From: Dehalococcoidia bacterium UBA1332 | Lineage (GTDB): Bacteria; Chloroflexota; Dehalococcoidia; Lucifugimonadales; Lucifugimonadaceae | Length of the DNA stretch: 57,208 bases | Direction: 5' to 3' | Assembly (NCBI GenBank): GCA_002306745.1 | Contig: DBSW01000155.1 | Coordinates: 1 to 57,208, forward strand | Part shown: positions 43,636-56,080 of the stretch, one piece after another | How the letters are laid out: the number at the start of each line of letters is the position of its first letter | Numbering within the stretch: position 1 is the stretch's first letter | Notes under the pieces: generated by a model | What the model saw: the letters and a program-made list of their open reading frames with translations, nothing else | What the model was told of the DNA's origin: nothing | The model's database searches: none | Made by a program: the position numbers and the translations under genes

Positions 43636-45063
43636 TTATTCTGGCACGAGCAGGCTCATGAATTCGTCGATAGCGATAGATTCCAATTGTGCCCGATCAC
43701 TAAATAATGAAAGCAACATTTCTACTCGTGCCGGACTGAGTTTTGTTTCTGCGTTAGACCGGAATTTTTCATATAGTAATGGTTTCGCTTCGTCTCTACG
43801 GCGTCTATGACCTATTGGATATTCCACCGTAACTTTTTTGGTCATAGACCCATCAATAAATTTAACTTGCAGAGCGTTAGCGATGGATCGCTTATCAGGA
43901 TCGAGATAGTCTTTACTAAATCGTTTATCGTGAACCACGACCATCTTGTCGCGTAAAAAATCTATTTGCTGGTCAGCCGCCGCATTATCCTCATAATCCT
44001 CGGCAGTGAGGCTTCCCTTTAATAAACCAACCGCCGTCATATATTGAATACAGTGATCGCGATCTGCGGGGTTATTTAATGGACCTGATTTATCGATAAT
44101 TTTTATCGCAGATTCCTGTGTTGTAATAATCACTTCTTGAATTTCATCTAACCGGTCCATAATTTCAGCATGTAACGAGAAAGCTGCTTCTACAGCTGTC
44201 TGAGCATGAAATTCAGCCGGAAAGGAAACCTTAAAAAGTATGTTTTCCATCACATACTTTTCTAGATCACGCTCGAGCGTGATCTGTTCTCCTTTGTACC
44301 AAACATCCTGAAATCCCCAATTCGGAGCTGTTAGAGCAGATGGGTAGCCCATCTCGCCAGCAATAGCGTTCATCCCAAAACGCACCGCTCGTCCTAGTGC
44401 ATCCCCTGCCGCCCACGACTTACGCGAACCAGTGTTTGGAGCGTGCCTATAAGTCCGCAAAGTAGCATCTAGCCAAGCATTTGAAACAGCATTTTCAACC
44501 TCACGTACGGTCCCACCCATCATAGAAGTAACAATCGCCGTCGAAGCAACTTTGACAAGCAGTACGTGATCGATACCCACTCGATTAAATGAATTATTGA
44601 GTGCCAATACGCCCTGAATTTCATAAGCTTTAATTCCGCACTTAATCACATCCAAAACCGTAAATTTTGAGCGCTCTTTAGGTTCCGAATTACGATTCAT
44701 AAAATCTGCTACGGACAAAATAGCACCGTAATTGTCAGATGGATGCCCCCATTCATCCGCAAGCCATGTGTCGTTATAGTCCAACCACCGAATTGCAGCT
44801 CCCATATCGAATGCCGCCTTGACAGGATCAAGTTCAAATCGAGTACCCATAACTCTGGATCCATTAGGAACAACGGTTCCAGCAACTTGGGGTCCAAGCA
44901 GCTTGGTACAGGCAGGATAATCCATTGCCAGAAGTGCGCAACCTATAGAATCCATCAAGGTCAGATTAGCGGTGTCGAGAGCTATATCAGAACTTGGTTT
45001 GTAATTGACTGCGTAGTCGGCGATAACCGATATAACAGTATCGGTAACCGGACCCTTTAACAT
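43636..45063 (-). CDS. prpD: 2-methylcitrate dehydratase
   Basis: RWLDYNDTWLA.EWGHPSDN, RTYRHAPNTGSRKSWAAGDA, FKVSFPAEFHAQTA, RDHCIQY. Confidence 0.95.
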   Translation of the reverse strand: MLKGPVTDTVISVIADYAVNYKPSSDIALDTANLTLMDSIGCALLAMDYPACTKLLGPQVAGTVVPNGSRVMGTRFELDPVKAAFDMGAAIRWLDYNDTWLADEWGHPSDNYGAILSVADFMNRNSEPKERSKFTVLDVIKCGIKAYEIQGVLALNNSFNRVGIDHVLLVKVASTAIVTSMMGGTVREVENAVSNAWLDATLRTYRHAPNTGSRKSWAAGDALGRAVRFGMNAIAGEMGYPSALTAPNWGFQDVWYKGEQITLERDLEKYVMENILFKVSFPAEFHAQTAVEAAFSLHAEIMDRLDEIQEVIITTQESAIKIIDKSGPLNNPADRDHCIQYMTAVGLLKGSLTAEDYEDNAAADQQIDFLRDKMVVVHDKRFSKDYLDPDKRSIANALQVKFIDGSMTKKVTVEYPIGHRRRRDEAKPLLYEKFRSNAETKLSPARVEMLLSLFSDRAQLESIAIDEFMSLLVPE

Positions 45064-46178
45064 TAGACCCGCTCCTCTAAATGTACATAAGGTCGTAATT
45101 TGGGGCCCGTGTAATCAGAAAGAGGTCTAATAAGCTTGTTGTTTGCCCGTTGCTCGATCACATGAGCAATCCAACCTGAGGTGCGAGCGATCACAAAGAC
45201 TGGGGTAAACATGGCAGTAGGAATACCACACATGTGGTATACAGTTGCAGCATAAAAATCCAAATTAGGATGCATGCTTTTCTCTCGCATCATCACTGTC
45301 TCTATTCTCTCAGAAATATCATAATACTTTGTATCAGCAGCAGAATCAGATAAACGCTTAGCAAGATCTTTTACTATAGGAGATCGTGGATCACCGTTCT
45401 TGTAAACACGGTGCCCAAATCCCATAATCAGGCGTCTAGCTTCGAGCATATGCAAAATAGATTTTTCGGCGTCGTGTGCGGAGTCAAATGAAGAAATCAG
45501 CTGCATAGCAGCCTCGTTAGCCCCACCGTGTAGGTTGCCTCTAAGAGCGCCAATAGCCCCAGCAACAGCAGAGTAAGAATCCGATAAAGTCGAAGTAACA
45601 ACCCTGGCTGTAAAAGTTGATGCGTTAAACTCATGTTCAGCATATAAGATTAGAGTTTTATCAAGTGCAGCCTGTTTCAGTGAATCGGATGGTTTCCCCG
45701 ACATCAAGCTCAAAAAGTGACCTGAAACTGTTTCTTCATCTGACTCAGTATCAATTTTCTCGTTTCTCGCGTGATATCTATACCAATACGCTAACATCGA
45801 TCCAAAGCACGCTGTGAGACGATCACCAACTGTTGCCGCAGTCCTACCATTTTTACCTTCCACTTCGATCGTTCCTAAGAGAGATGCCCCTGTTCTCAGA
45901 ACATCCATCGGATGAGTGCTGCTTGGAAGCATCTCTAAAAGTTTTTTTATCTGTTCAGGTAAATGCCTAAGTCCCATCAGTTTCTTTCTATAAGAAACAA
46001 GAAGCGCCTTAGATGGCAACTCACCGTATATCAGAAGGTAGGCAACTTCTTCAAATGTGGATTTCGCAGCTAAATCCTTTATCGAATAACCACGGTAAGT
46101 AAGACCTATATCCTCATGTCCAACGGTAGATATTCCTGAAGAGCCCGCAGTGATCCCGTTTAGCCCAGAAGAAGTCAT
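45063..46178 (-). CDS. prpC: 2-methylcitrate synthase
   Basis: LTYRGY, HPMDVLRT, YAEHEFNASTF, LHGGANE, GFGHRVY, PNLDF; between prpB and prpD. Confidence 0.92.
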   Translation of the reverse strand: MTSSGLNGITAGSSGISTVGHEDIGLTYRGYSIKDLAAKSTFEEVAYLLIYGELPSKALLVSYRKKLMGLRHLPEQIKKLLEMLPSSTHPMDVLRTGASLLGTIEVEGKNGRTAATVGDRLTACFGSMLAYWYRYHARNEKIDTESDEETVSGHFLSLMSGKPSDSLKQAALDKTLILYAEHEFNASTFTARVVTSTLSDSYSAVAGAIGALRGNLHGGANEAAMQLISSFDSAHDAEKSILHMLEARRLIMGFGHRVYKNGDPRSPIVKDLAKRLSDSAADTKYYDISERIETVMMREKSMHPNLDFYAATVYHMCGIPTAMFTPVFVIARTSGWIAHVIEQRANNKLIRPLSDYTGPKLRPYVHLEERV

Positions 46179-46219
46179 TTAAATGGTCCTTTTAAAGAGT
46201 GGAGCCTACCACTCTGTCT

Positions 46220-47104
46220 CTAGTCTTGTGAATCTAATTTGAATAACTCATTTAATTTATTCTCATACTTGTGATAGTCGAGAAATTCGTAGAGTTCAGA
46301 GCGGGTCTGTAGATCATCAATAATTCTCTTCTGAGATCCATCAGACCTAATAACTTTCAATGCTCTCTCAGCAGCTCTGTTCGCCGCACGGAACAAAGTA
46401 AGCGGGTACAGCGCGATATCCACACCAGCGTCACGCAGTTCGTTAACGGTAAAATTTGGAGTCTCTCCAAACTCCGTAAGATTCGCCAGAATAGGTACAT
46501 CAAGTGCATCATGGAATCGTCTGAAGTCTTCGATCGTTTTCACGGCTTCCGCAAAAATCATGTCCGCCCCAGCTTCTACATAGGCATATGACCGATTGAT
46601 TGCTGAATCTACTCCTTCGTTGGCAATAGAATCAGTCCTTGCCATTACAACGAAGTCATCATATTCCTTTGCATCGGATGCAGCTTTAATTCGATCGCAC
46701 ATTTCAGCCTTGGAAACAATTTGTTTGCCGGGTCTATGACCGCATCGTTTTGCTTGAACTTGATCCTCGATGTGGACACCAGCGGCCCCAGAACGAGCCA
46801 TTTCTTTAATTGTCCTAGCAATCATGAAAGCTCCACCCCAGCCTGTATCAACATCTACTAGCAGTGGGAGATCGGAAACAGAAGTAATACGTCGGACATC
46901 TTCGAGCACATTATCAAGTGTAGTCATACCCAGATCGGGTAGTCCATATGAAGAAGTTGCGACGCCAGACCCCGATAAGTACAGTGCCCTAAAGTCAGCG
47001 TCTTTAGCCATAATTGCGTGGTATGGATTTGTAACACCTATGACCTGCAAAGGTGATTCTTCACGAAGCGCGATACGGAATAATGTTCCGGTAAGTATTT
47101 CCAT
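46220..47104 (-). CDS. prpB: methylisocitrate lyase
   Basis: GLPDLG, DVDTGWG, IEDQVQAKRCGHRPGK, ARTD, ANLTEFG.TP. Confidence 0.95.
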   Translation of the reverse strand: MEILTGTLFRIALREESPLQVIGVTNPYHAIMAKDADFRALYLSGSGVATSSYGLPDLGMTTLDNVLEDVRRITSVSDLPLLVDVDTGWGGAFMIARTIKEMARSGAAGVHIEDQVQAKRCGHRPGKQIVSKAEMCDRIKAASDAKEYDDFVVMARTDSIANEGVDSAINRSYAYVEAGADMIFAEAVKTIEDFRRFHDALDVPILANLTEFGETPNFTVNELRDAGVDIALYPLTLFRAANRAAERALKVIRSDGSQKRIIDDLQTRSELYEFLDYHKYENKLNELFKLDSQD

Positions 47105-47157
47105 AATCGCAAGATTATATGTCCGAGTGCATTATTACGAGGAAACGATGCATAGTT

Positions 47158-48000
47158 CTAACCCCAAAAAGCGTCAAAAAATACTAACGGAGAAACCGTC
47201 AGTAGAACAACTCCAACAACAAGTCTCAATTTCCTAGAGTCGACATCGCCTCCGAATCTTGATCCAGCAAACATGCCTATAGCAGCCGGGATACCTACGA
47301 CTGCAACTAATAACCAATCTACGCGTCCGCGTAATAAGTGGCCAGTAAATCCTGAGGTACCTACCAATATAGTCAATGCAAGGTTCGTACCTGCAGCTAA
47401 AGATGGTTTCATTTTCAGAAGGTGTATCAGGGCTGGCATACGAAGAACTCCCAATGCAAGACCAACCGCACCTCCTATCAAGCCAATCGCAAATCCAACT
47501 ATGCTCTCGCGACCAACACTTTTTGGAGTCAACTCGCCTCGCCCTGCGCCTGAATCTTTCTCGGTATCGGCGCTATTATGATCTCGTAGCTCGGTAAATG
47601 AACGTCCTATCAACATCAACGCCGACCACAGCAATAACACCGCTACAACGGTCAACAGGATGGTGCGAGAAACAAGATCGGCGTACAGTCCGCCAATAAA
47701 CGAACCCCCTATCGCAGGCACTCCAATAACAAGTACAACGCGATAAACAATTCGGTTCTGTAATATCGCGGGCCAAGAGCCGGCAAAAGATCCAATCAAA
47801 CTCACGAACAGGTTAGTACTAGCCGCAATTAATGGATCCAATCCAACTGCCGTCATTATCGGCAAGCGAACTACCCCTAGAGCTATCCCAACCATCCCGC
47901 CAATAACCCCAACAATCAGGGACATCACCGCTAATCCAATCAGTTCAATTCCTGATAAAACCGTGCCCGTTGACGCTATAACGGGAAGAGAGTCAACCAT
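47158..48000 (-). CDS. sulfite exporter TauE/SafE family membrane protein
   Basis: Two repeats of G..GG.VG.ALG...P and A.(S/G)TNL; about 8 TM segments. Confidence 0.8.
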   Translation of the reverse strand: MVDSLPVIASTGTVLSGIELIGLAVMSLIVGVIGGMVGIALGVVRLPIMTAVGLDPLIAASTNLFVSLIGSFAGSWPAILQNRIVYRVVLVIGVPAIGGSFIGGLYADLVSRTILLTVVAVLLLWSALMLIGRSFTELRDHNSADTEKDSGAGRGELTPKSVGRESIVGFAIGLIGGAVGLALGVLRMPALIHLLKMKPSLAAGTNLALTILVGTSGFTGHLLRGRVDWLLVAVVGIPAAIGMFAGSRFGGDVDSRKLRLVVGVVLLTVSPLVFFDAFWG

Positions 48001-48172
48001 TAGGCAAACAACCTAAACGCCAAATAGATTGACCTATAAATGAACAACTTGCGACATTGGGACAAAATAGTCACAAGGCTATAATCGGACGCCGACAAAG
48101 ATATTTTTTGTAACAAAATCACGTAGATACGATTTTATCTTCGCCCAGAACTGACGCAACTAATAACACATC

Positions 48173-49075
48173 TTATTTACCGACCAGATCCAAACTTTCC
48201 AATAGACTGTCGATCTCTCGGTAATGTTCGTCATCAGGACGTAAAGCCGGATGACGGGCAAAATCTGAGCCTTTAGAGAAGACTCCACGCCTGACCATAA
48301 TGTATTTGTAAATCCAGTTCGCAAACCCCTGGCCCTGAGCAAGTATGCTGATCAAAGGTGCATATCTTCGAATTTCAGTATTCGCTGCTCCTTCGTCACC
48401 GTTATGAAAAGCATTCCAAACCCTCACAAACATATCGGGCAAGGTCGATCCAGGCATAGTACCCACAGATCCTCGTTTGAATTCCTCGACCGCAAAAGCC
48501 CCACCTGCTCCTCCAAACAACACCAGTCCTGTTCCTTCTGAAAGTTCTTGTGTTTCTCTCATTCGCGGAACGGTTGGGGGAGTTTCAACTTTTATGTAAC
48601 AAAGATTCTCGTGTCGCTTTGCACACGCAACCGCCATCGCTGGCGGAACCTGAGCCGTTCCTTGGTCCTGTAAAAAAATAGGTATAGAAACCGATTCAGC
48701 AATGCGACCAAAATAATCGACGTTCTCAGACCCCGGCATCGGTATAAATGATGTCGGGCGGATCATCAAAGCATCAGCTCCTAAATCTTCCGCTCTTTTT
48801 GAAAGATCAACCGCGTTATCGGTACCTTCAGCACCGGTGTTCATTACTACTTTTACTCGACCATTATTAACATCGACGACAGTTTTTAATATTTGATCTC
48901 GCTCTGCCTCGTTAAATTTATAAATCTCGGTAGCAACCGCAATACCCAGACCATGTACGCCTTTGGAAATCATCCATTCAACTTGATTTTCAAGGTCGGA
49001 AATAACCAAACGTCCTTTTTGATCAATCGGGGCGGAAAGAATAGGGTAGACACCTTTCATCGAACGATCTGGCAT
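48173..49075 (-). CDS. DapA/NAL-family lyase (2-keto-3-deoxy acid dehydratase-like)
   Basis: GVYPIL..P, GADALMI.P, LQD, YIKVET (Schiff-base Lys), GTMPG. ATG 49075 preferred. Confidence 0.8.
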   Translation of the reverse strand: MPDRSMKGVYPILSAPIDQKGRLVISDLENQVEWMISKGVHGLGIAVATEIYKFNEAERDQILKTVVDVNNGRVKVVMNTGAEGTDNAVDLSKRAEDLGADALMIRPTSFIPMPGSENVDYFGRIAESVSIPIFLQDQGTAQVPPAMAVACAKRHENLCYIKVETPPTVPRMRETQELSEGTGLVLFGGAGGAFAVEEFKRGSVGTMPGSTLPDMFVRVWNAFHNGDEGAANTEIRRYAPLISILAQGQGFANWIYKYIMVRRGVFSKGSDFARHPALRPDDEHYREIDSLLESLDLVGK

Positions 49076-49224
49076 ATCCAAATTTCTCCGTAATAACAAA
49101 CTAATTGGTATAGTTACACAAATAACTTTCACAATTGAGCGATGTTCGCGCCGTTCAATCTTGCATGCAACAGTAAGTCAATCACACATACAAATAGAAT
49201 GACGTATTTTTATACAACGATAAA

Positions 49225-50421
49225 TTAAAGAAGATTCTTTACGATAGCCATAAGGACACCAGCCACGGTCGCGGTACCGATAACCCCAGCCACGTTTGGT
49301 CCCATCGCATGCATTAACAAAAAATTATTTGGGTCTTCTTTCTGTCCCATGTCCTGAACGACACGAGCAGCCATTGGAACTGCGGAAACTCCTGCAGCAC
49401 CGATCATTGGGTTGACTTTTTCACCGCTGACTAAGTTCATCAATTTCGCCAAAAGAATTCCAGCGACAGTTGCAGTCATAAAAGCGAACAAACCAAGGAA
49501 GAAGATACCAATTGTCTCAGGTTGTAAAAACACTTCCGCTGGCATAGTCGAACCGACAGCAAGTCCAAGCAGGATAATCACTGCGTTCATAAGAGCGTTT
49601 TCAGAAACATCGGCTAAGCGAGGAACAACTCCAGAAACCTTAATCAAATTTCCAAGCATGAGCATACCAATAAGCGGCGACGCTGAGGGAACCAAGACAC
49701 TTATTATGATCGTAGTGAGCACAGGAAATAAAACTTGGGTTCGCTTAGAAACTGGTTTAGCCGAATACTCCATACGAATCAGGCGTTCCTTTTGAGTAGT
49801 AAGAAGCTTAATTATTGGAGGCTGAATAATTGGTACTAGTGCCATGTAAGAATACGCAGCAACAGCTGTTGCTCCGACGATATCTCTGACTTCTACGTGC
49901 GGAAGTGATTCACCCAGCTCTCTCATTCGAGTAGCTATGAAAATTGTTGTAGGTCCATCAGCTCCTCCGATAATTCCAATAGATGATGCTTCCAACAAGC
50001 CAAATTCGAAGAAATCTGTCATACCCAGCAGCAAAGCACCTAATAATGCAACAAACACACCTGCCTGGGCACCAGCCCCGAGAAGCAAAGTCTTTGGATT
50101 GGACAACATTGGCGTGAAATCAGTAGCTGCCCCAACTCCCAAAAAGATTAGCAATGGAAATATATCGGTTTCCATTCCTACGGTCTGAAAAGTTTTCAAC
50201 AGCCCAGCTGGTTCCCCATGACCGCCTTCACGAATAAGTTCTCCTAGAGGAAGATTTGCAAATAGAATTCCCATAGAGATCGGGACAAGAAGCAGCGGTT
50301 CCTTCTTTTTGGCTACTCCGACGTAAAGTAAAGCCCCGGCGATAACCCACATGATTATCATTCGCGGCTCTTCCCCTAGCGCCACAAAACCTTCCCATAG
50401 CGAACCTAACTCAGTCGACAT
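49225..50421 (-). CDS. oadB: Na+-translocating decarboxylase beta subunit
   Basis: EPLLLVPI, FLGVGA.TDF, IIGGADGPT, AAYSYMALVPIIQPP, MHAMGPNVAGVIG. Confidence 0.95.
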   Translation of the reverse strand: MSTELGSLWEGFVALGEEPRMIIMWVIAGALLYVGVAKKKEPLLLVPISMGILFANLPLGELIREGGHGEPAGLLKTFQTVGMETDIFPLLIFLGVGAATDFTPMLSNPKTLLLGAGAQAGVFVALLGALLLGMTDFFEFGLLEASSIGIIGGADGPTTIFIATRMRELGESLPHVEVRDIVGATAVAAYSYMALVPIIQPPIIKLLTTQKERLIRMEYSAKPVSKRTQVLFPVLTTIIISVLVPSASPLIGMLMLGNLIKVSGVVPRLADVSENALMNAVIILLGLAVGSTMPAEVFLQPETIGIFFLGLFAFMTATVAGILLAKLMNLVSGEKVNPMIGAAGVSAVPMAARVVQDMGQKEDPNNFLLMHAMGPNVAGVIGTATVAGVLMAIVKNLL

Positions 50422-50426
50422 AGACC

Positions 50427-50876
50427 TCAGTCCTGCGTTATCTCGGCCAGTGATTGACCGTGCTGGACTGCATCGCCGGCTGCCACAAGAACCGAAGAAA
50501 CAGTACCATCAACTGGTGCTGCGATAGTGTTTTCCATCTTCATCGACTCAAGCACAACTATTGACTGTCCTTTAGTGACCGCATCACCGACCGAAACTCC
50601 AACGTTCAATATTTTGCCCGGCATTGGAGCCCTAACGACACCATCACTTCCAGCCGTAGGAACGGATGGACGAGAAACCGGTTCTGGTGTCTTCGAAACC
50701 CGTTGTGCGGAGGGTGAAGGTTCTACTGCAGGTCGAGATGAAACAATATGTTCGGGTAGCTCCACCTGGTAAAGGGTTCCATCAACTGAAACTTCTACGG
50801 GTGAAGAAGATAAATCCCCGATTTCAATATCATAATTCTGACCGGCAATTTTGATCTTATATTTTTTAGTAGACAC
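50427..50876 (-). CDS. biotin carboxyl carrier protein
   Basis: APMPGKI, LESMKMEN biotinyl-Lys motif, Pro/Ser linker, N-terminal beta-rich association domain. Confidence 0.92.
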   Translation of the reverse strand: MSTKKYKIKIAGQNYDIEIGDLSSSPVEVSVDGTLYQVELPEHIVSSRPAVEPSPSAQRVSKTPEPVSRPSVPTAGSDGVVRAPMPGKILNVGVSVGDAVTKGQSIVVLESMKMENTIAAPVDGTVSSVLVAAGDAVQHGQSLAEITQD

Positions 50877-51244
50877 TATCTACCAGCCTCCCTAACACCT
50901 AACGGGACTGAACTAAGTTCTCGCATCCTACCAGCCTGTAACCAAGAACCCGTACTCTCGCTCCTGGAAAGCGTAGCCTTATTGATTGCCCTAGGCTGAG
51001 AAAGAGCAAAAGCGAGGGCTACGGCAGCAACCTGTTGTTTCGTAATTCCACGATCATGACTGCTCTTCAAAAGTACAGTTGTGTCCTCTGAAAATGAATC
51101 AGCAGTTATGGTGGAAGCTGGTTCTCGGTCTAGCATTCCAATTGCTTTAATCGCTATGGCAAGAAGAGCCAGTACGACAAAAACCACACCCATGCCGACA
51201 AGGCTGACAGTTAAACCGTCATATAGCAGGTCCTGGTCAAACGT
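50876..51244 (-). CDS. oadG: Na+-decarboxylase small membrane subunit (OadG/MmdD family)
   Basis: GLTVSLVGMGVVFVVLALL TM helix, VAAVALA, SW...GR. Frame is open back to an ACG at 51244 with AAGGAG 7 nt upstream; first ATG is 51193. Confidence 0.8.
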   Translation of the reverse strand, partial: TFDQDLLYDGLTVSLVGMGVVFVVLALLAIAIKAIGMLDREPASTITADSFSEDTTVLLKSSHDRGITKQQVAAVALAFALSQPRAINKATLSRSESTGSWLQAGRMRELSSVPLGVREAGR

Positions 51245-51341
51245 GGTATTACTCCTTCAACTAACAACGCTGATTGCACAGCCGAACTAATGAACTGAAT
51301 CTATCGTCATATATAAGTCGTACGATTCTAACAAAACAACG

Positions 51342-52424
51342 CTAAATAGCGGGGTGTATTTCTTCGACAGAAACCGGATAAACAGCCCCATCAATCGACA
51401 CAAGCTCGGCACCATCATTTTCGCTAACACCGATATTGGTCTGGGAACCATTTACAAAAAACGCCGTATCCTCAACAACGTCAACTATTGGCGTTCCTGC
51501 AAGCAGCTTCATTTTCTGATTAAGTGCGTCCTGAGCTTCTTCAACAGAAATTGACACAAATGACAATTCCATCCCGGGTTTAACCTGTCCAAGTATTGGT
51601 AAATCAACGCTGGCGACGGTCGCTATTTTTGCGTAACCACCTGTCGTCTGACGGTCTGCAAGTAAAACGATAGGCATACCGTCTCCTGGAATCTGTACTG
51701 ATCCATTAACCACAGCATCGGAAATAATGTCGTACACTCCAGACTTGCTTTCAATTACCGGACCATCGAGTCGTAGCCCCTGCCTATTTGACTGTTCAGT
51801 GATCGTGTATTCCGACTCGAGAAAAGTATGTATTCCGATATCCGAAAACAAATTGTCCTGAGGGCCCAAAACTACGCGTATAGCAAGTGAAGTCAGGTTT
51901 AGATCTGTAGTAAAATTCTGGGACAATCCAGAACGGGCAAACTTATCAGACTCACCTAAATTAAGAACATCGCCACTTTCGAGTTTTCTGCCCATTACGC
52001 CACCGATCTGCGAAGCAACATGCGTTGATCTTGACCCGAGAGTTTTCGGCACATCTATTCCACCAGCGATAGAAATGTAGGATCTTAACCCGTCGGTCGC
52101 CATTCCCAATTCCAGTAATGATCCAGTATGTGCAACATAAGAAACATTAGTACCTAGCAATACACCGTCTAGGGTGGCATATGTATTAGCACCGGTCAGC
52201 GCAAAAATGGTCTGCTTATTGAACTCTAGAGATAATCCTCCAATCATCACTTCTAGTCCAGCACGGTCCGACGAATTGCCAACAAGCCGATTACCTAAAA
52301 GCATAGAGTCAATGTCCACAGCCCCTGAAACTGAAACCCCCAAACTTTGAAAACCCGCCCTCCCCTGATCTTGAATCAAAGTCAAAGGACCCGGATCAAC
52401 AATTCGAATTGATCCGTTATTCAT
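51342..52424 (-). CDS. pxpC: 5-oxoprolinase subunit C / KipA-type carboxyltransferase domain with C-terminal extension
   Basis: PGPLTLIQDQGR, SGAVD, NRLVGN, GLRSY, GSRST, SNRQGLRL, GSVQIP.DG.PIVLLADRQTTGGY. Confidence 0.9.
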   Translation of the reverse strand: MNNGSIRIVDPGPLTLIQDQGRAGFQSLGVSVSGAVDIDSMLLGNRLVGNSSDRAGLEVMIGGLSLEFNKQTIFALTGANTYATLDGVLLGTNVSYVAHTGSLLELGMATDGLRSYISIAGGIDVPKTLGSRSTHVASQIGGVMGRKLESGDVLNLGESDKFARSGLSQNFTTDLNLTSLAIRVVLGPQDNLFSDIGIHTFLESEYTITEQSNRQGLRLDGPVIESKSGVYDIISDAVVNGSVQIPGDGMPIVLLADRQTTGGYAKIATVASVDLPILGQVKPGMELSFVSISVEEAQDALNQKMKLLAGTPIVDVVEDTAFFVNGSQTNIGVSENDGAELVSIDGAVYPVSVEEIHPAI

Positions 52425-53109
52425 GAGATGTCACTGGCACAAACCGTACACGAGATCCCGGTGTGATCTTTGACGGAGTGTGGCTACTAATATCGAATAA
52501 CTTGGTTACTGTACGACCAATAATCTGCCAACCGCCAGGACTTTCGTTGGGGTATACGCCTGTTTGCGATTCAGCTATTCCGACCGAACCTGCTGGAATT
52601 AGGATACGCGGAGTTTTGAGCCTTGGAGTAGCAATGCGGCTGTCAAGTCCTCCGAGATAAGGAAACCCTGGAGCAAATCCTATCATGTACACCCGATAGT
52701 CAACTGAACTGTGTATATCGACGACCTGTTCAATTGTCAGGCCAGCATGGTCAGCTACGTTTTGAATATCGGGACCTGCTTCACCCCCATAAACCACTGG
52801 CAACTCGATAACGACTGGGTTAAACACAATTTTTTCACCAACAACTTGATTTTCCAAAATGACGGTCAGCTGTTCAAACAGTACTCGAAAACTAGTAACT
52901 AATGGATCATAGTTCACTAAAAGAGATCGGTAAGTGGGTATAAATTCGCTAACACCTCGAAGGTTAGCACGCTTTATTTGTTCAACTAATGCATAAACAG
53001 AATCGTTGATCGCAACATCAATCTCAGCACCTAACTCTATTAGGATCGCAGAGTCACCCGCCGGGACTAGACGCGGAAAGACTTGCAGTTTGCTATCAGT
53101 CGCGTCCAA
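52417..53109 (-). CDS. pxpB: 5-oxoprolinase subunit B / KipI-type
   Basis: GDSAILIE, PTYRSLLV.YDP, PVVYGG..GPD, GFAPGFPYL, GSVGIA, YP.ESPGGWQIIGRT. Confidence 0.92.
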   Translation of the reverse strand: MDATDSKLQVFPRLVPAGDSAILIELGAEIDVAINDSVYALVEQIKRANLRGVSEFIPTYRSLLVNYDPLVTSFRVLFEQLTVILENQVVGEKIVFNPVVIELPVVYGGEAGPDIQNVADHAGLTIEQVVDIHSSVDYRVYMIGFAPGFPYLGGLDSRIATPRLKTPRILIPAGSVGIAESQTGVYPNESPGGWQIIGRTVTKLFDISSHTPSKITPGSRVRFVPVTSHE

Positions 53110-53110
53110 C

Positions 53111-53893
53111 TTAAATTCCTGATAAAAGTTCGTGCATAGGTGTCACTTCAACACCTGCTGATTCAAGAGTTGATCTAACACCGGCTGCCAGCTGAACCGA
53201 TCCATCTGTATCTCCATGTAAACAGATAGAATCTGCTGAAAAATCTATCTCAGTACCATCTACAGCATTCACTTTGCCTTCCGTAGCAAGTTTGAGCGAC
53301 CTAGCAATAACTTCATTGGGATCATGGACGACGGCACCCGGCTGAGAACGAGGAACAAGCGTCCCTTCAGGAGTTACAGCACGATCGGCATAACACTCTC
53401 TCGCGACTTTTACACCATGCGAACGAGCGATCTTCTCCCACTGTGATCCCGCCAAAACAACATGTATGAGGTCCCCATCGTAAGCCTTTACTGCTGCCAC
53501 AATTGCTTCAGCGATAGCCGCATCACGCACAGCCGTGTTATATAAGGCGCCGTGCGGCTTGACATGTTGAAGTTTTTTTCCAGGCGCAAATGCTGAAAGT
53601 GCGCCAATCTGGTACGTGACTGCGTTATAGACTTCGTCAGCAGTGAGGTCCATGTTACGTCGCCCGAATCCGGCAAGATCTGGATAAGCAGGATGGGCAC
53701 CGATGCCAACGTCATTTTTCACCGCCAACGAGACTGTTTTTGCCATCCAATCTGGATCTCCCGCATGAAAACCCGTAGCAATATTTGCGGACGTAATGTG
53801 CTTGACTATCTCACTATCTAGACCTAGCTCGTAACCAGCGAACGACTCACCAATATCTGCGTTAAAATCGATTTTTCCTACATTAGATGTCAA
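53111..53893 (-). CDS. pxpA: 5-oxoprolinase subunit A (LamB/YcsF)
   Basis: IDFNADIGE, ANIA.GFHAGD, GAHP.YPD..GFGRR, HVKPHGALYN, ICLHGD. TTG at 53893 with GGAG upstream preferred. Confidence 0.93.
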   Translation of the reverse strand: MTSNVGKIDFNADIGESFAGYELGLDSEIVKHITSANIATGFHAGDPDWMAKTVSLAVKNDVGIGAHPAYPDLAGFGRRNMDLTADEVYNAVTYQIGALSAFAPGKKLQHVKPHGALYNTAVRDAAIAEAIVAAVKAYDGDLIHVVLAGSQWEKIARSHGVKVARECYADRAVTPEGTLVPRSQPGAVVHDPNEVIARSLKLATEGKVNAVDGTEIDFSADSICLHGDTDGSVQLAAGVRSTLESAGVEVTPMHELLSGI

Positions 53894-53991
53894 TTTTTTA
53901 GCTCCGTTTGTAACCTTTCGTTGTATCAATGTAAATTTTTGAGGTAAATACAGATTTGTCTATTCCAATCAAAGGAATATTTGAACCTAAT

Positions 53992-55047
53992 TTATGGCAA
54001 ATACACCCTTCTACCTGTCTGCCATGACTCTTGAAGTGCGTCCGTAAATTCCATGTACTTCAATGAGTCTGTAAAATTCGATCGAGTTACTGGCTCAATC
54101 CCACGTATAGCGTTGATGAACTCTTCTTCAACACGCCACCCTCCGCGTTTTTCATTCGGCACATCGATCACACTCATTCCATCATCACCTCGGCGGCCTC
54201 CAGAAACTACCGGATCATTATCTAGGCCGGATGTAGCAATATGAATTGTTCCCTCTGTGCCAAATATCCAGATCTCGGTTGGTGGAACAAATGGACCCGA
54301 AACAGTGGTGACCGAAAGATTAACGTTTGCTCCTCCACCTAACGAATAAACCACATCAAGTTGATCAGGAATGGTCATCTCTTTGCGGGCTCCATCCCAT
54401 CCCCGACGATGAGGAACTCGAATCTGAGCATTTGCCGACACAGAACTGGCCGGTCCAATCAATCGCATAAGGTTCTCGTACCATATGCCAGTGGTCATGA
54501 CGTTATTCCCCGACAACTCACGCATATGACGCCAATGAGCTTCTTCGTCAGAGTTGGGAAAATTAGAGCCATCAGTTACTCGTGCATTTACGTTGATTAT
54601 TTCACCAACATACCCATCTGCGATCAAGTCGATCAGATGCTGTTCGCAAACCATTAGGTGAGGAGGTGGCACCACTTGCGTAATCAGATCAGGGTTAGCT
54701 ACTGAAGCAGCATACATATCGCGAGCCTCAGAAGCATTCATCGCCATACGTGCTTCACATAGAACATGCTTACCGTTATCGAGAGCAGTAAGAGTGACTG
54801 TGGAATGCATATATGGCCAAGTCCCAATACAGACGGCATCTACATCGGGGTCTTCTATCAAATCCAGCCAAGTGGGATACGCTTCTCCGAGTTCATACTT
54901 GTCAGCGGCCAAACGGCTAGACTCGATCGATCGGTTAGCCACCCCAACAAACTCAACACCCGGTTGTGACCTTAACCCAGGAATATGGCGTAACGCTGTA
55001 TTAGCACCTGCCCCAATGAACCCGACTTTTATCGTTTCCTCTGCCAT
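53992..55047 (-). CDS. Gfo/Idh/MocA-family oxidoreductase
   Basis: VGFIGAG, DAVCIGTWP..H, GKHVLCEARMA. Confidence 0.88.
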   Translation of the reverse strand: MAEETIKVGFIGAGANTALRHIPGLRSQPGVEFVGVANRSIESSRLAADKYELGEAYPTWLDLIEDPDVDAVCIGTWPYMHSTVTLTALDNGKHVLCEARMAMNASEARDMYAASVANPDLITQVVPPPHLMVCEQHLIDLIADGYVGEIINVNARVTDGSNFPNSDEEAHWRHMRELSGNNVMTTGIWYENLMRLIGPASSVSANAQIRVPHRRGWDGARKEMTIPDQLDVVYSLGGGANVNLSVTTVSGPFVPPTEIWIFGTEGTIHIATSGLDNDPVVSGGRRGDDGMSVIDVPNEKRGGWRVEEEFINAIRGIEPVTRSNFTDSLKYMEFTDALQESWQTGRRVYLP

Positions 55048-55196
55048 TTGGCGATATTCCTTCAATGTGAACGTGTATAAGTGATTTAAAACAACCACAA
55101 AAGCATAGCTTTGGTTTGAAGTTTACGTTAAATAAACAAAATCCAAAACCAGTTTCAATCAAAACGATACCGAACAAAAGTACAATATCAATATCA

Positions 55197-55541
55197 ATGA
55201 TGCCTAAATATTCGGGTGACTCTGCAAAGCCCATACAAGTTGATATGACAGCAATTGGAGTTAAGATCAGTTGGGACAACGGTCAGAACTGTACCTACCC
55301 TTACCGTTACCTGCGACTCCAGTGCGCATGCGCCGCCTGTATCGAAGAAATGACTGGACGTCCTATCTTGAACGTTGCACAGGTTCCAGAAGACATTATT
55401 GCGGCTGACTATCTAATGGTCGGAAAATACGCCATTCAGTTCTTATGGACGGATGGTCATGATTCAGGAATCTATCCATATGAAATGTTACTCAATTTAG
55501 CATCAAGAGATAATGCGGTTATCTGTGAAAGCCAGTCATAA
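55197..55541 (+). CDS. DUF971 (GBBH-like N-terminal) protein
   Basis: LRLQCACAAC, VGKYAI...W.DGHDSGIY. Start approximate. Confidence 0.8.
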   Translation: MMPKYSGDSAKPIQVDMTAIGVKISWDNGQNCTYPYRYLRLQCACAACIEEMTGRPILNVAQVPEDIIAADYLMVGKYAIQFLWTDGHDSGIYPYEMLLNLASRDNAVICESQS

Positions 55542-55543
55542 CG

Positions 55544-56080
55544 ATGACAAGGACAGTCGATCATCGCGATGTGATCCTTCAAGCCCTTCAAGATTACGGA
55601 CGTCAACTGGAACGAGTATTGTCAAATTTAGGGCAGATAGAAGCTAGATGGATGCCCACTTTGGAGTCAAACCATATCCTTTGGATCCTCTGGCACATGG
55701 GAAGAATGGAAGATATGTGGGCATGGTACCTGCGGGGTGGTGGAGAAAGTGCCTGGATCGAAGGCGGTTGGTCTGAATCAATAGGCATCGACGCTTCACG
55801 CAACGGGGTCGGAGATACGATCGGACAAGTACGAGATTTTCCAGAAATATCAGTTGATAAAATTTATGAATACTGGAAGGCATCGAGACACTTGTTGATT
55901 TCCGCTGTTGAAAGTGTCGGAATAAACCAGTTGAAAATTCAGCGTCCCGAAATCTGGACTCACGCGCCTAACAAAGCACCCACTCTTTTTTGGGTGCTCG
56001 GCAGGGTACCAGTAGAAAATAGCCAGCACACCGGCCAAATCGCTTACATCAGAGGTCTCTACGCAGCAAAATTCAAATAA
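55544..56080 (+). CDS. DinB/DUF664-family protein
   Basis: N.I.WILWHMGR.ED and C-terminal QHTGQIAYIRG. Confidence 0.75.
   Translation: MTRTVDHRDVILQALQDYGRQLERVLSNLGQIEARWMPTLESNHILWILWHMGRMEDMWAWYLRGGGESAWIEGGWSESIGIDASRNGVGDTIGQVRDFPEISVDKIYEYWKASRHLLISAVESVGINQLKIQRPEIWTHAPNKAPTLFWVLGRVPVENSQHTGQIAYIRGLYAAKFK

Follow-up and report, generated by a model that had tools for sequence, protein, structure and literature searches.

The stretch analysed here (the window) comprises 57,208 nucleotides, positions 1 to 57,208 of contig DBSW01000155.1 of Dehalococcoidia bacterium UBA1332. It carries a co-oriented run of six genes, pxpA-pxpB-pxpC-oadG-BCCP-oadB, in which the genes of a predicted 5-oxoprolinase precede those for the membrane subunits and the biotin carboxyl carrier protein (BCCP) of a Na+-translocating decarboxylase. 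The coupling of PxpABC to this module is well supported. Its parts are known, reversal of such pumps is known in vitro, and the contact between PxpBC and BCCP has a solved precedent. Conserved linkage, a tail on PxpC that is homologous to the docking hairpins of BCCP and the precedent from Mycobacterium smegmatis together make it very likely that PxpBC acts on the BCCP/OadG module. In SAR202 genomes, as judged from sequence and gene order, OadG and OadB occupy the genetic slot of biotin carboxylase (BC). For a functional replacement of BC, driven by Na+ influx and feeding PxpBC, PccB and AccDA, we judge the chances to be evenly balanced.

Conservation and parts of the operon

Forty-five OadB loci were fetched, and the order pxpABC-(oadG)-BCCP-oadB recurs in 32 of them, which argues against chance. 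These are all of the SAR202 loci of sufficient length (32/32), and the adjacency noted in the sequence-only reading is thus conserved across genomes. The remainder consists of four SAR202 loci cut by contig ends and nine loci from other groups, which have the canonical mmdA-oadG-BCCP-oadB (7) or oadA-oadB (2) arrangement. pxpA is kept beside pxpBC in all 32 full loci. In a separate sample of 81 genomes of the order to which the window genome belongs (SAR202), pxpC and oadB are both present in 46, at most 10 kb apart in 36 of these and unlinked in 10. PxpC is absent from 7 of the 53 OadB genomes; OadB is missing from five genomes with PxpC and BC, and in four of these PxpC has the tail described below; and none of the 51 PxpC-bearing genomes is without both BC and OadB. 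Among the 80 closest loci listed in a metagenome scan for pxpABC, eight are linked to oadB, all with 70-92% identity to the window OadB, and none of the oadB-linked loci lies outside SAR202. pxpABC stands next to an ATP-dependent BC in 22 of the 80, in the classical order pxpB-pxpC-BCCP-BC-pxpA, and in one additional locus in genome G045. The window genome is 2.06 Mb in size and 79.9% complete; its OadB shares 93% identity with the OadB of Candidatus Lucifugimonas marina JH545, and SAR202/Dehalococcoidia records provide the closest loci.

All six genes lie on the minus strand, at distances of 1, -8, 97, -1 and 5 nucleotides from pxpA through to oadB, and coordinates and family scores agree with the run as it was first described. 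pxpA (53111-53893; LamB/YcsF family, PF03746 with E 1e-95, NF003814 with a score of 353.5 against a cut-off of 226) is predicted to encode a lactam/amide hydrolase subunit. Its start is a TTG at 53893, and the longest open reading frame begins at 53929. pxpB (52417-53109) encodes a KipI-like protein with carboxyltransferase subdomains C/D (PF02682; TIGR00370, 214.9 against 145.6), whose relatives in the PDB are PH0987, YbgJ and MSMEG_0436. The 360-residue product of pxpC (51342-52424) is KipA-like and corresponds to subdomains A/B (PF02626; TIGR00724, 308.7 against 230.2); it falls below the cut-off of the equivalog NF045499 (251.7 bits against 500), and its structure model (pLDDT 93) matches YbgK and MSMEG_0435. 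The cluster and its scores are those by which a prokaryotic 5-oxoprolinase is predicted, and family comparison bears out the stated homology of PxpBC to the transferase of urea carboxylase. Neither a 5-oxoproline transporter nor a pcp gene is found among the neighbours annotated in the window.

The pump module begins with oadG (50876-51244; oadG/mmdD-type, PF04277 above cut-off), whose product has one membrane helix, a linker and a C-terminal helix with a W-x3-GR motif; its C-terminal tail spans about residues 70-110 (50915-51037). Compared with the PDB, its profile matched the OadG of 6iva only. The gene apparently starts at an ACG (51242-51244), 7 nucleotides behind an AAGGAG/GGGAG site. The window shares this ACG with 18 related loci; 7 of the 19 have a stop codon in frame shortly before it, and in five more distant loci a TTG stands one codon on. 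Such a conserved non-canonical start could limit the supply of OadG. The BCCP (50427-50876; PF00364) has an MmdC/GcdC-like layout of N-terminal hairpins, a Pro/Ala/Ser linker and a biotinyl domain with the motif ESMKM (K113). It is the only one found in the window genome, where two other PF00364 matches sit in frames of 408-424 amino acids. The product of oadB (49225-50421; PF03977 and TIGR01109 above cut-off), the carboxybiotin decarboxylase beta subunit, retains the Na+-site residues E41, D155, S346 and N376, with T383 in place of S419, when aligned to PDB 6iva. The equivalents D203, S382, N412 and E40 bind Na+ or are needed for decarboxylation, according to the available text of PMC7274780. 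Of the features that mark the Oad/Mmd/Gcd decarboxylases, the Na+-site residues of the beta subunit, a membrane-anchored gamma/delta subunit and a biotin carrier with MKM are found here; the operon holds no dedicated alpha carboxyltransferase (OadA, MmdA or GcdA).

Predicted docking of PxpC on the biotin carrier

The PxpC of the window ends in about 50 extra residues (approximately 312-360; 51345-51491, minus strand), modelled as four beta strands (320-351) after a long helix. Homology links this tail to the hairpins at the N-terminus of BCCP (residues 1-45; hhalign probability 96.8%, E 2.9e-10), and these hairpins in turn align with the human PccA BT region. Against Pfam ACCA_BT the window tail gave a match below cut-off (E 0.004; 1 of 20 rows). 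The residues that follow the GGY motif number 108-151 in 24 of 25 parsed PxpC of the order and 47-74 in all 22 correctly parsed PxpC of other Chloroflexota, and the hairpin profile scores on 41 of 63 SAR202 rows and on 0 of 23 rows from other Chloroflexota. A word-index search with the tail returned only itself, its profile gave no genuine PDB match, and a complex prediction of BCCP 1-48, OadG 62-122 and PxpC 288-360 gave scores of 0.21, 0.31 and 0.19 against a mark of 0.32 and was not used. The single SAR202 PxpC found to lack the tail occurs in G027 (L136:6944-8209), a genome that has a BC of the tail type described below.

From this homology and the mycobacterial precedent we infer that the tail is one half of a BT-like docking domain, with predicted binding to the carrier. 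The available text of PMC13012033 describes a cryo-EM structure in which the M. smegmatis homologues of PxpC and PxpB bind the biotin of BCCP and a PccB-type subunit. Fusions of PxpC to BCCP are found at L280:192-1553, where the fusion runs through an MmdC-like hairpin, and at L279:5986-7353, which adjoins a BC gene. At two other loci (L277:7060-8075 and L278:1200-2240) pxpC is accompanied by a gene for an OadG-like tail protein with two helix motifs and no evident membrane helix, a BCCP gene and a DHDPS gene. Five PxpC of non-SAR202 metagenome loci (L288, L308, L331, L337 and L344) end in a single MmdC/GcdC-like hairpin, which suggests that PxpC may dock on a carrier or pump outside SAR202 as well.

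Biotin loading and the direction of the pump

Across the 81 genomes, BC and OadB occur together in 14, BC alone in 27, OadB alone in 39 and neither in 1; with one genome per family the corresponding numbers are 9, 19, 26 and 1. Fisher p values on these counts overstate the pattern, as kinship is uncorrected. In G023 (96% complete, 110 contigs) a BCCP is present, but the searches found neither BC nor OadB. Twenty BC loci were fetched, 18 of them from OadB-less genomes, and in 15 of these 18 (17 of the 20 overall) the BC ends in an OadG-type tail, a helix followed by W-x3-GR. The BC tail is homologous to that of OadG (hhalign probability 96.9%, E 1.5e-10). In 15 of the 17 cases the gene for the BC with this tail stands immediately before that for the same BCCP of the hairpin type. 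The shared tail and gene position suggest that one type of carrier is preceded either by a BC with the tail or by a membrane helix with the tail plus OadB.

The sequence-only reading had found neither an alpha subunit nor a BC. This holds for the window contig, on which tblastn with BC, MmdA and AccDA queries gave no match and OadA-type queries matched only at the BCCP, but for the alpha subunit it does not hold for the genome. An MmdA/PccB-type transferase lies, partly masked, at the ends of contigs C2 and C59, and contig C65 carries an AccA-type fragment that shares 83% identity with the AccDA fusion of JH545; no OadA domain and no BC domain (PF02785) were found in this 79.9% complete genome. 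With an MmdA/PccB in the genome, a PF01039 transferase in 81 of the 81 genomes and seven OadB genomes without PxpC, it is doubtful that PxpBC supplies a missing alpha function, as had been suggested.

Five chromosome-scale genomes with this operon (G081-G085) were used to ask what loads the biotin. BC (PF02785) was found in none of the five, and strong PF02786 matches occur only in CarB-sized frames of 1100-1300 amino acids, so that an ATP-grasp BC subunit or domain was seen neither in these genomes nor in the window genome. Each of the five has a PccB-type transferase, a fused AccDA and one BCCP-sized biotinyl protein; FabD was found in all four tested, methylmalonyl-CoA mutase in none of the four tested. 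An OadA-type domain is present in G081 only: the search found no BC, OadA or mutase in G082-G084 and no OadA in G085. G069, a single contig at 96% completeness, has OadG/OadB and MmdA-BCCP, with no BC, OadA, mutase or PxpC found. G041 had also been considered as a donor-less genome and was dropped, as OadA is present. Since genomes such as G082-G085 and G069 carry AccDA or MmdA and yet no donor that was found, carboxybiotin would be supplied most simply by OadB through Na+ influx.

In the reading that we favour, Na+ inflow through OadB/OadG would drive CO2 onto the biotin of the carrier in place of an ATP-dependent BC. PxpBC would dock on the carrier and on OadG by its added hairpin tail, as one of several carboxyl acceptors, and the unlinked PccB/MmdA and AccDA would accept carboxyl from the same carrier. 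A split BT-like domain may assemble from the OadG helix and the hairpins of BCCP and PxpC, and PxpBC may attach a carboxyl to the nitrogen of a lactam or amide, 5-oxoproline for example, and so allow PxpA to open it. A wider proposal falls somewhat short of an even chance: that in a large part of the abundant SAR202 clade a Na+-gradient-driven BC substitute serves, with one carrier, the transferases for acetyl-CoA, propionyl-CoA, pyruvate and lactams through BT-type hairpins on the shared tail, and that PxpABC is a biotin-/CO2-dependent lactamase.

Three lines of evidence make the carboxylating direction of OadB/OadG the more probable one, and the direction first proposed, in which PxpBC donates and the pump exports Na+, the less likely. 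BC only loads biotin, and the linkage of pxpABC to BC elsewhere therefore places PxpBC on the carboxyl-accepting side there. The opening of 5-oxoproline is uphill, with an equilibrium constant of about 0.035 as given in the available text of PMC13274462; the cost of about 8 kJ/mol that we compute from it means that lactam opening cannot alone pay for Na+ export and fits an energy-consuming role. Finally, OadG/OadB stand in the slot of BC and bear its tail. As to energy, pyruvate carboxylation is put at +31.5 kJ/mol and the inflow of two Na+ in seawater at -46 kJ/mol in the available text of PMC13147460, which describes Na+ decarboxylase pumps as reversible and poses carboxylation in vivo as a question; reversal in vitro goes back to Dimroth and Hilpert 1984, as cited. 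Our own estimate for two Na+ is 27-45 kJ/mol at 100-150 mV. CPA antiporters are found in 15 of 17 genomes, and the ATP synthase c subunits, which lack the Na+ motif, are presumably of the H+ type; respiration can thus maintain a Na+ gradient.

A number of observations weigh against this reading, among them several that favour the alternatives below. A phylogenetic independent-pairs test (PccB tree, 60 genomes) yielded only 4-5 pairs with p values of 0.5-1 and is underpowered, and one pair runs the other way for any BC. Of the 14 genomes that hold both BC and OadB, at least three (G006, G014 and G047) have a tail-type BC. At 100 mV two Na+ provide 27-36 kJ/mol, which is marginal. FabD was not found in the window genome at its 79.9% completeness. 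The donor search covered BC, OadA and mutase; malonate-CoA ligase and Ccr could also supply carboxylated CoA esters.

The alternative that survives best, though we think it unlikely, is a forward pump on a transcarboxylation hub, in which an unlinked alpha subunit (OadA/5S acting on oxaloacetate, or MmdA on a carboxylated CoA ester) would load biotin, AccDA and PxpBC would draw on it, and OadB would decarboxylate the surplus and export Na+. Ordinary donors are indeed present in most of the order, JH545 included. An OadA/PycB-type protein (PF02436) is found in 50 of the 81 genomes, usually encoded directly after pccB and carrying a biotinyl domain of its own; among the 39 BC-less OadB genomes it occurs in 35 and the mutase in 23, and only the window genome, G050 and G069 have neither. 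JH545 also encodes a stand-alone 5S-like transferase that ends in a docking hairpin. The pccB product scores best with the TIGR01117 mmdA model, yet below its cut-off (808.6 bits against 998.8 for the G083 orthologue); canonical mmdA-oadG-BCCP-oadB loci in Anaerolineae share the OadG tail; and L277 and L278 keep pxpC, tail and BCCP without oadB. The Mrp antiporter (subunit E) is present in 8 of 28 OadB-less genomes and in 2 of 53 OadB-positive ones, the pattern expected if OadB exports Na+. Against the hub, no BC, OadA or mutase was found in G082-G084 and G069, nor OadA in G085 and in 24 of the 29 genomes of the window genus, the other five having an OadA-type protein. Both a keto-acid and a CoA-ester transferase, the pairing of transcarboxylase, are seen in G081 and across most of the order; the keto-acid type was not found in the window genome or in G082-G085. 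Moreover, G005 and G042 combine the same pccB-oadA/pycB pair with a tail-type BC, and there the pair would be expected to serve as pyruvate and propionyl-CoA carboxylase; the hub also leaves the shared BC/OadG tail and gene position unexplained.

Two side observations concern this transferase family. The OadA/5S-like transferase of G081 (L236:1438-2949) has 503 amino acids and no biotinyl domain, ends in one docking-type hairpin and is patchy in the genus. G011 and G062 each have ten PF02436 paralogues of about 490-540 amino acids, a family expansion.

A second alternative, which we hold to be improbable, is that PxpBC has no catalytic role on biotin, PxpABC being an ordinary ATP-dependent 5-oxoprolinase or PxpBC a regulator that sequesters the biotin arm, while the pump works with PccB/OadA/AccDA alone. 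It draws on the available text of PMC13012033, where the M. smegmatis homologues sequester biotin, reduce propionyl-CoA carboxylase activity and are inactive on urea, and on that of PMC13274462, where the characterised PxpABC of Corynebacterium glutamicum and Bacillus subtilis are described as ATP-dependent without biotin; both also count against our favoured reading. The ten genomes with unlinked pxpC and oadB and the 97-nucleotide gap with its own ribosome-binding site before oadG point the same way. However, SAR202 PxpC has a conserved extra domain with homology to the docking element of BCCP that is not seen on the PxpC of other Chloroflexota, PxpC-BCCP fusions and pxpBC-BCCP-BC-pxpA operons are common among the metagenome loci listed, and PxpA, superfluous for a pure regulator, is retained in 32/32 full loci.

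Slightly more improbable still is that PxpBC is a donor-side transferase that strips the carboxyl from an N-carboxy substrate (allophanate, carboxyguanidine or a PxpA-made carbamate) for Na+ export by OadB, with carboxybiotin perhaps also feeding AccDA: the tight conserved operon (pxpC within 10 kb of oadB in 36/46), the homology to the urea carboxylase transferase, the chemical reversibility of carboxyltransfer and the donor it would supply in G082-G085 speak for it, but seven OadB genomes have no PxpC, including G069 with no other donor found, five genomes have PxpC and BC without OadB (four with the tail), the partner linked to PxpBC in other bacteria is BC, the opening of a lactam costs about 8 kJ/mol, and the neighbours indicate no abundant N-carboxy substrate.

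Gene neighbourhood and comparison with known systems

Upstream of pxpA (53992-56080) lie genes for a Gfo/Idh/MocA oxidoreductase, a protein with a GBBH-like N-terminus and a DinB-family protein, in an order that is conserved, often with variable inserts before pxpA. After oadB (43636-49132) follow a DHDPS-family aldolase/dehydratase gene, a TauE-family transporter gene, prpB, prpC and prpD, as in most relatives of the group; the methylcitrate genes beside oadB suggest that propionyl-CoA is handled by the methylcitrate cycle in this mutase-less lineage. Promoter and terminator scans gave counts at or below chance (7 against 17.6 expected; 12 against 9.0). None of the sites falls between pxpC and oadG, and a weak hairpin at 51482-51460, within pxpC, was discarded. 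RNA-library contigs from four of five listed runs cover parts of pxpA, pxpC, oadG, BCCP and oadB and leave most of pxpB uncovered; among the pieces listed none spans 51244-51342, by which co-transcription is neither shown nor excluded.

If the favoured reading is true, the supply of fatty-acid precursors and the activation of lactams would be paid for by the seawater Na+ gradient, not ATP, in an abundant, slow-growing ocean clade with a cultured member. That member, JH545, is an aerobe whose fatty acids include C16:0 and 10-methyl C18:0 according to the available text of PMC10444878. Whether Na+ decarboxylase pumps carboxylate in cells, as asked in PMC13147460, would become testable. The same applies to the role of PxpB and PxpC, which resemble a biotin carboxyltransferase and are assumed to use ATP. 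If PxpABC is a biotin- and CO2-dependent lactamase, the mechanism of the widespread prokaryotic 5-oxoprolinase would also have to be revised. The tail shared by BC and OadG would be a modular route to ATP-independent carboxylases. In the open-access literature we found no description of this system; supplements lay outside this search, and the annotation tables of JH545 could bear on it.

Several known systems share parts with the SAR202 operon. Urea/guanidine carboxylase has a transferase homologous to PxpBC, but the SAR202 system has no BC domain, scores far below the cut-off of TIGR02712 (urea carboxylase) and does not show the BC-CT-BCCP layout. The Propionibacterium transcarboxylase (12S/5S/1.3S) likewise combines PccB-type and 5S-type transferases with a BCCP, and is not known to have a membrane subunit or PxpBC. 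The prokaryotic 5-oxoprolinase PxpABC of B. subtilis and C. glutamicum is built of the same three subunits, and the window proteins score above cut-off for the PxpA and PxpB families and for the PxpC domain family. In contrast to it and to the pxpB-pxpC-BCCP-BC-pxpA clusters, SAR202 PxpC has a BT-like tail, and its biotin partner is OadG/OadB rather than BC. The M. smegmatis complex places PxpC/PxpB homologues on BCCP biotin and a PccB-type transferase, and an AccE tether, whose motif may resemble that of OadG, would be the counterpart of the OadG tail; as described in the available text of PMC13012033, however, the carboxyl there comes from the ATP-dependent AccA3, the pair lowered activity and no membrane pump takes part. 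The match of the SAR202 PxpC model to MSMEG_0435 stops before the tail.

The Na+-translocating biotin decarboxylases OadAGB (PDB 6IVA/6IWW), MmdABCD and GcdABCD have the same beta-subunit Na+-site residues, a single-helix gamma/delta subunit and a BCCP with an N-terminal anchor and a Pro/Ala linker, and an MmdA-like transferase is present in the SAR202 genome; a separate BCCP and a small membrane subunit in such decarboxylases are described in the available text of PMC7145394. The SAR202 operon differs in having pxpABC in place of an alpha gene, an aerobic host and several transferases that would share one carrier, and with no BC found in these genomes carboxylation is the likely direction. 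A further comparison is with the reversed Na+ pumps proposed for marine Campylobacterota and Chlorobiota in the available text of PMC13147460, in which Na+ influx likewise drives a carboxylation through biotin. Such reversal has been shown in vitro only, and for living cells it is a proposal concerning pyruvate and OadA, whereas the SAR202 pump would replace BC throughout the cell, including for fatty-acid precursors and PxpBC.

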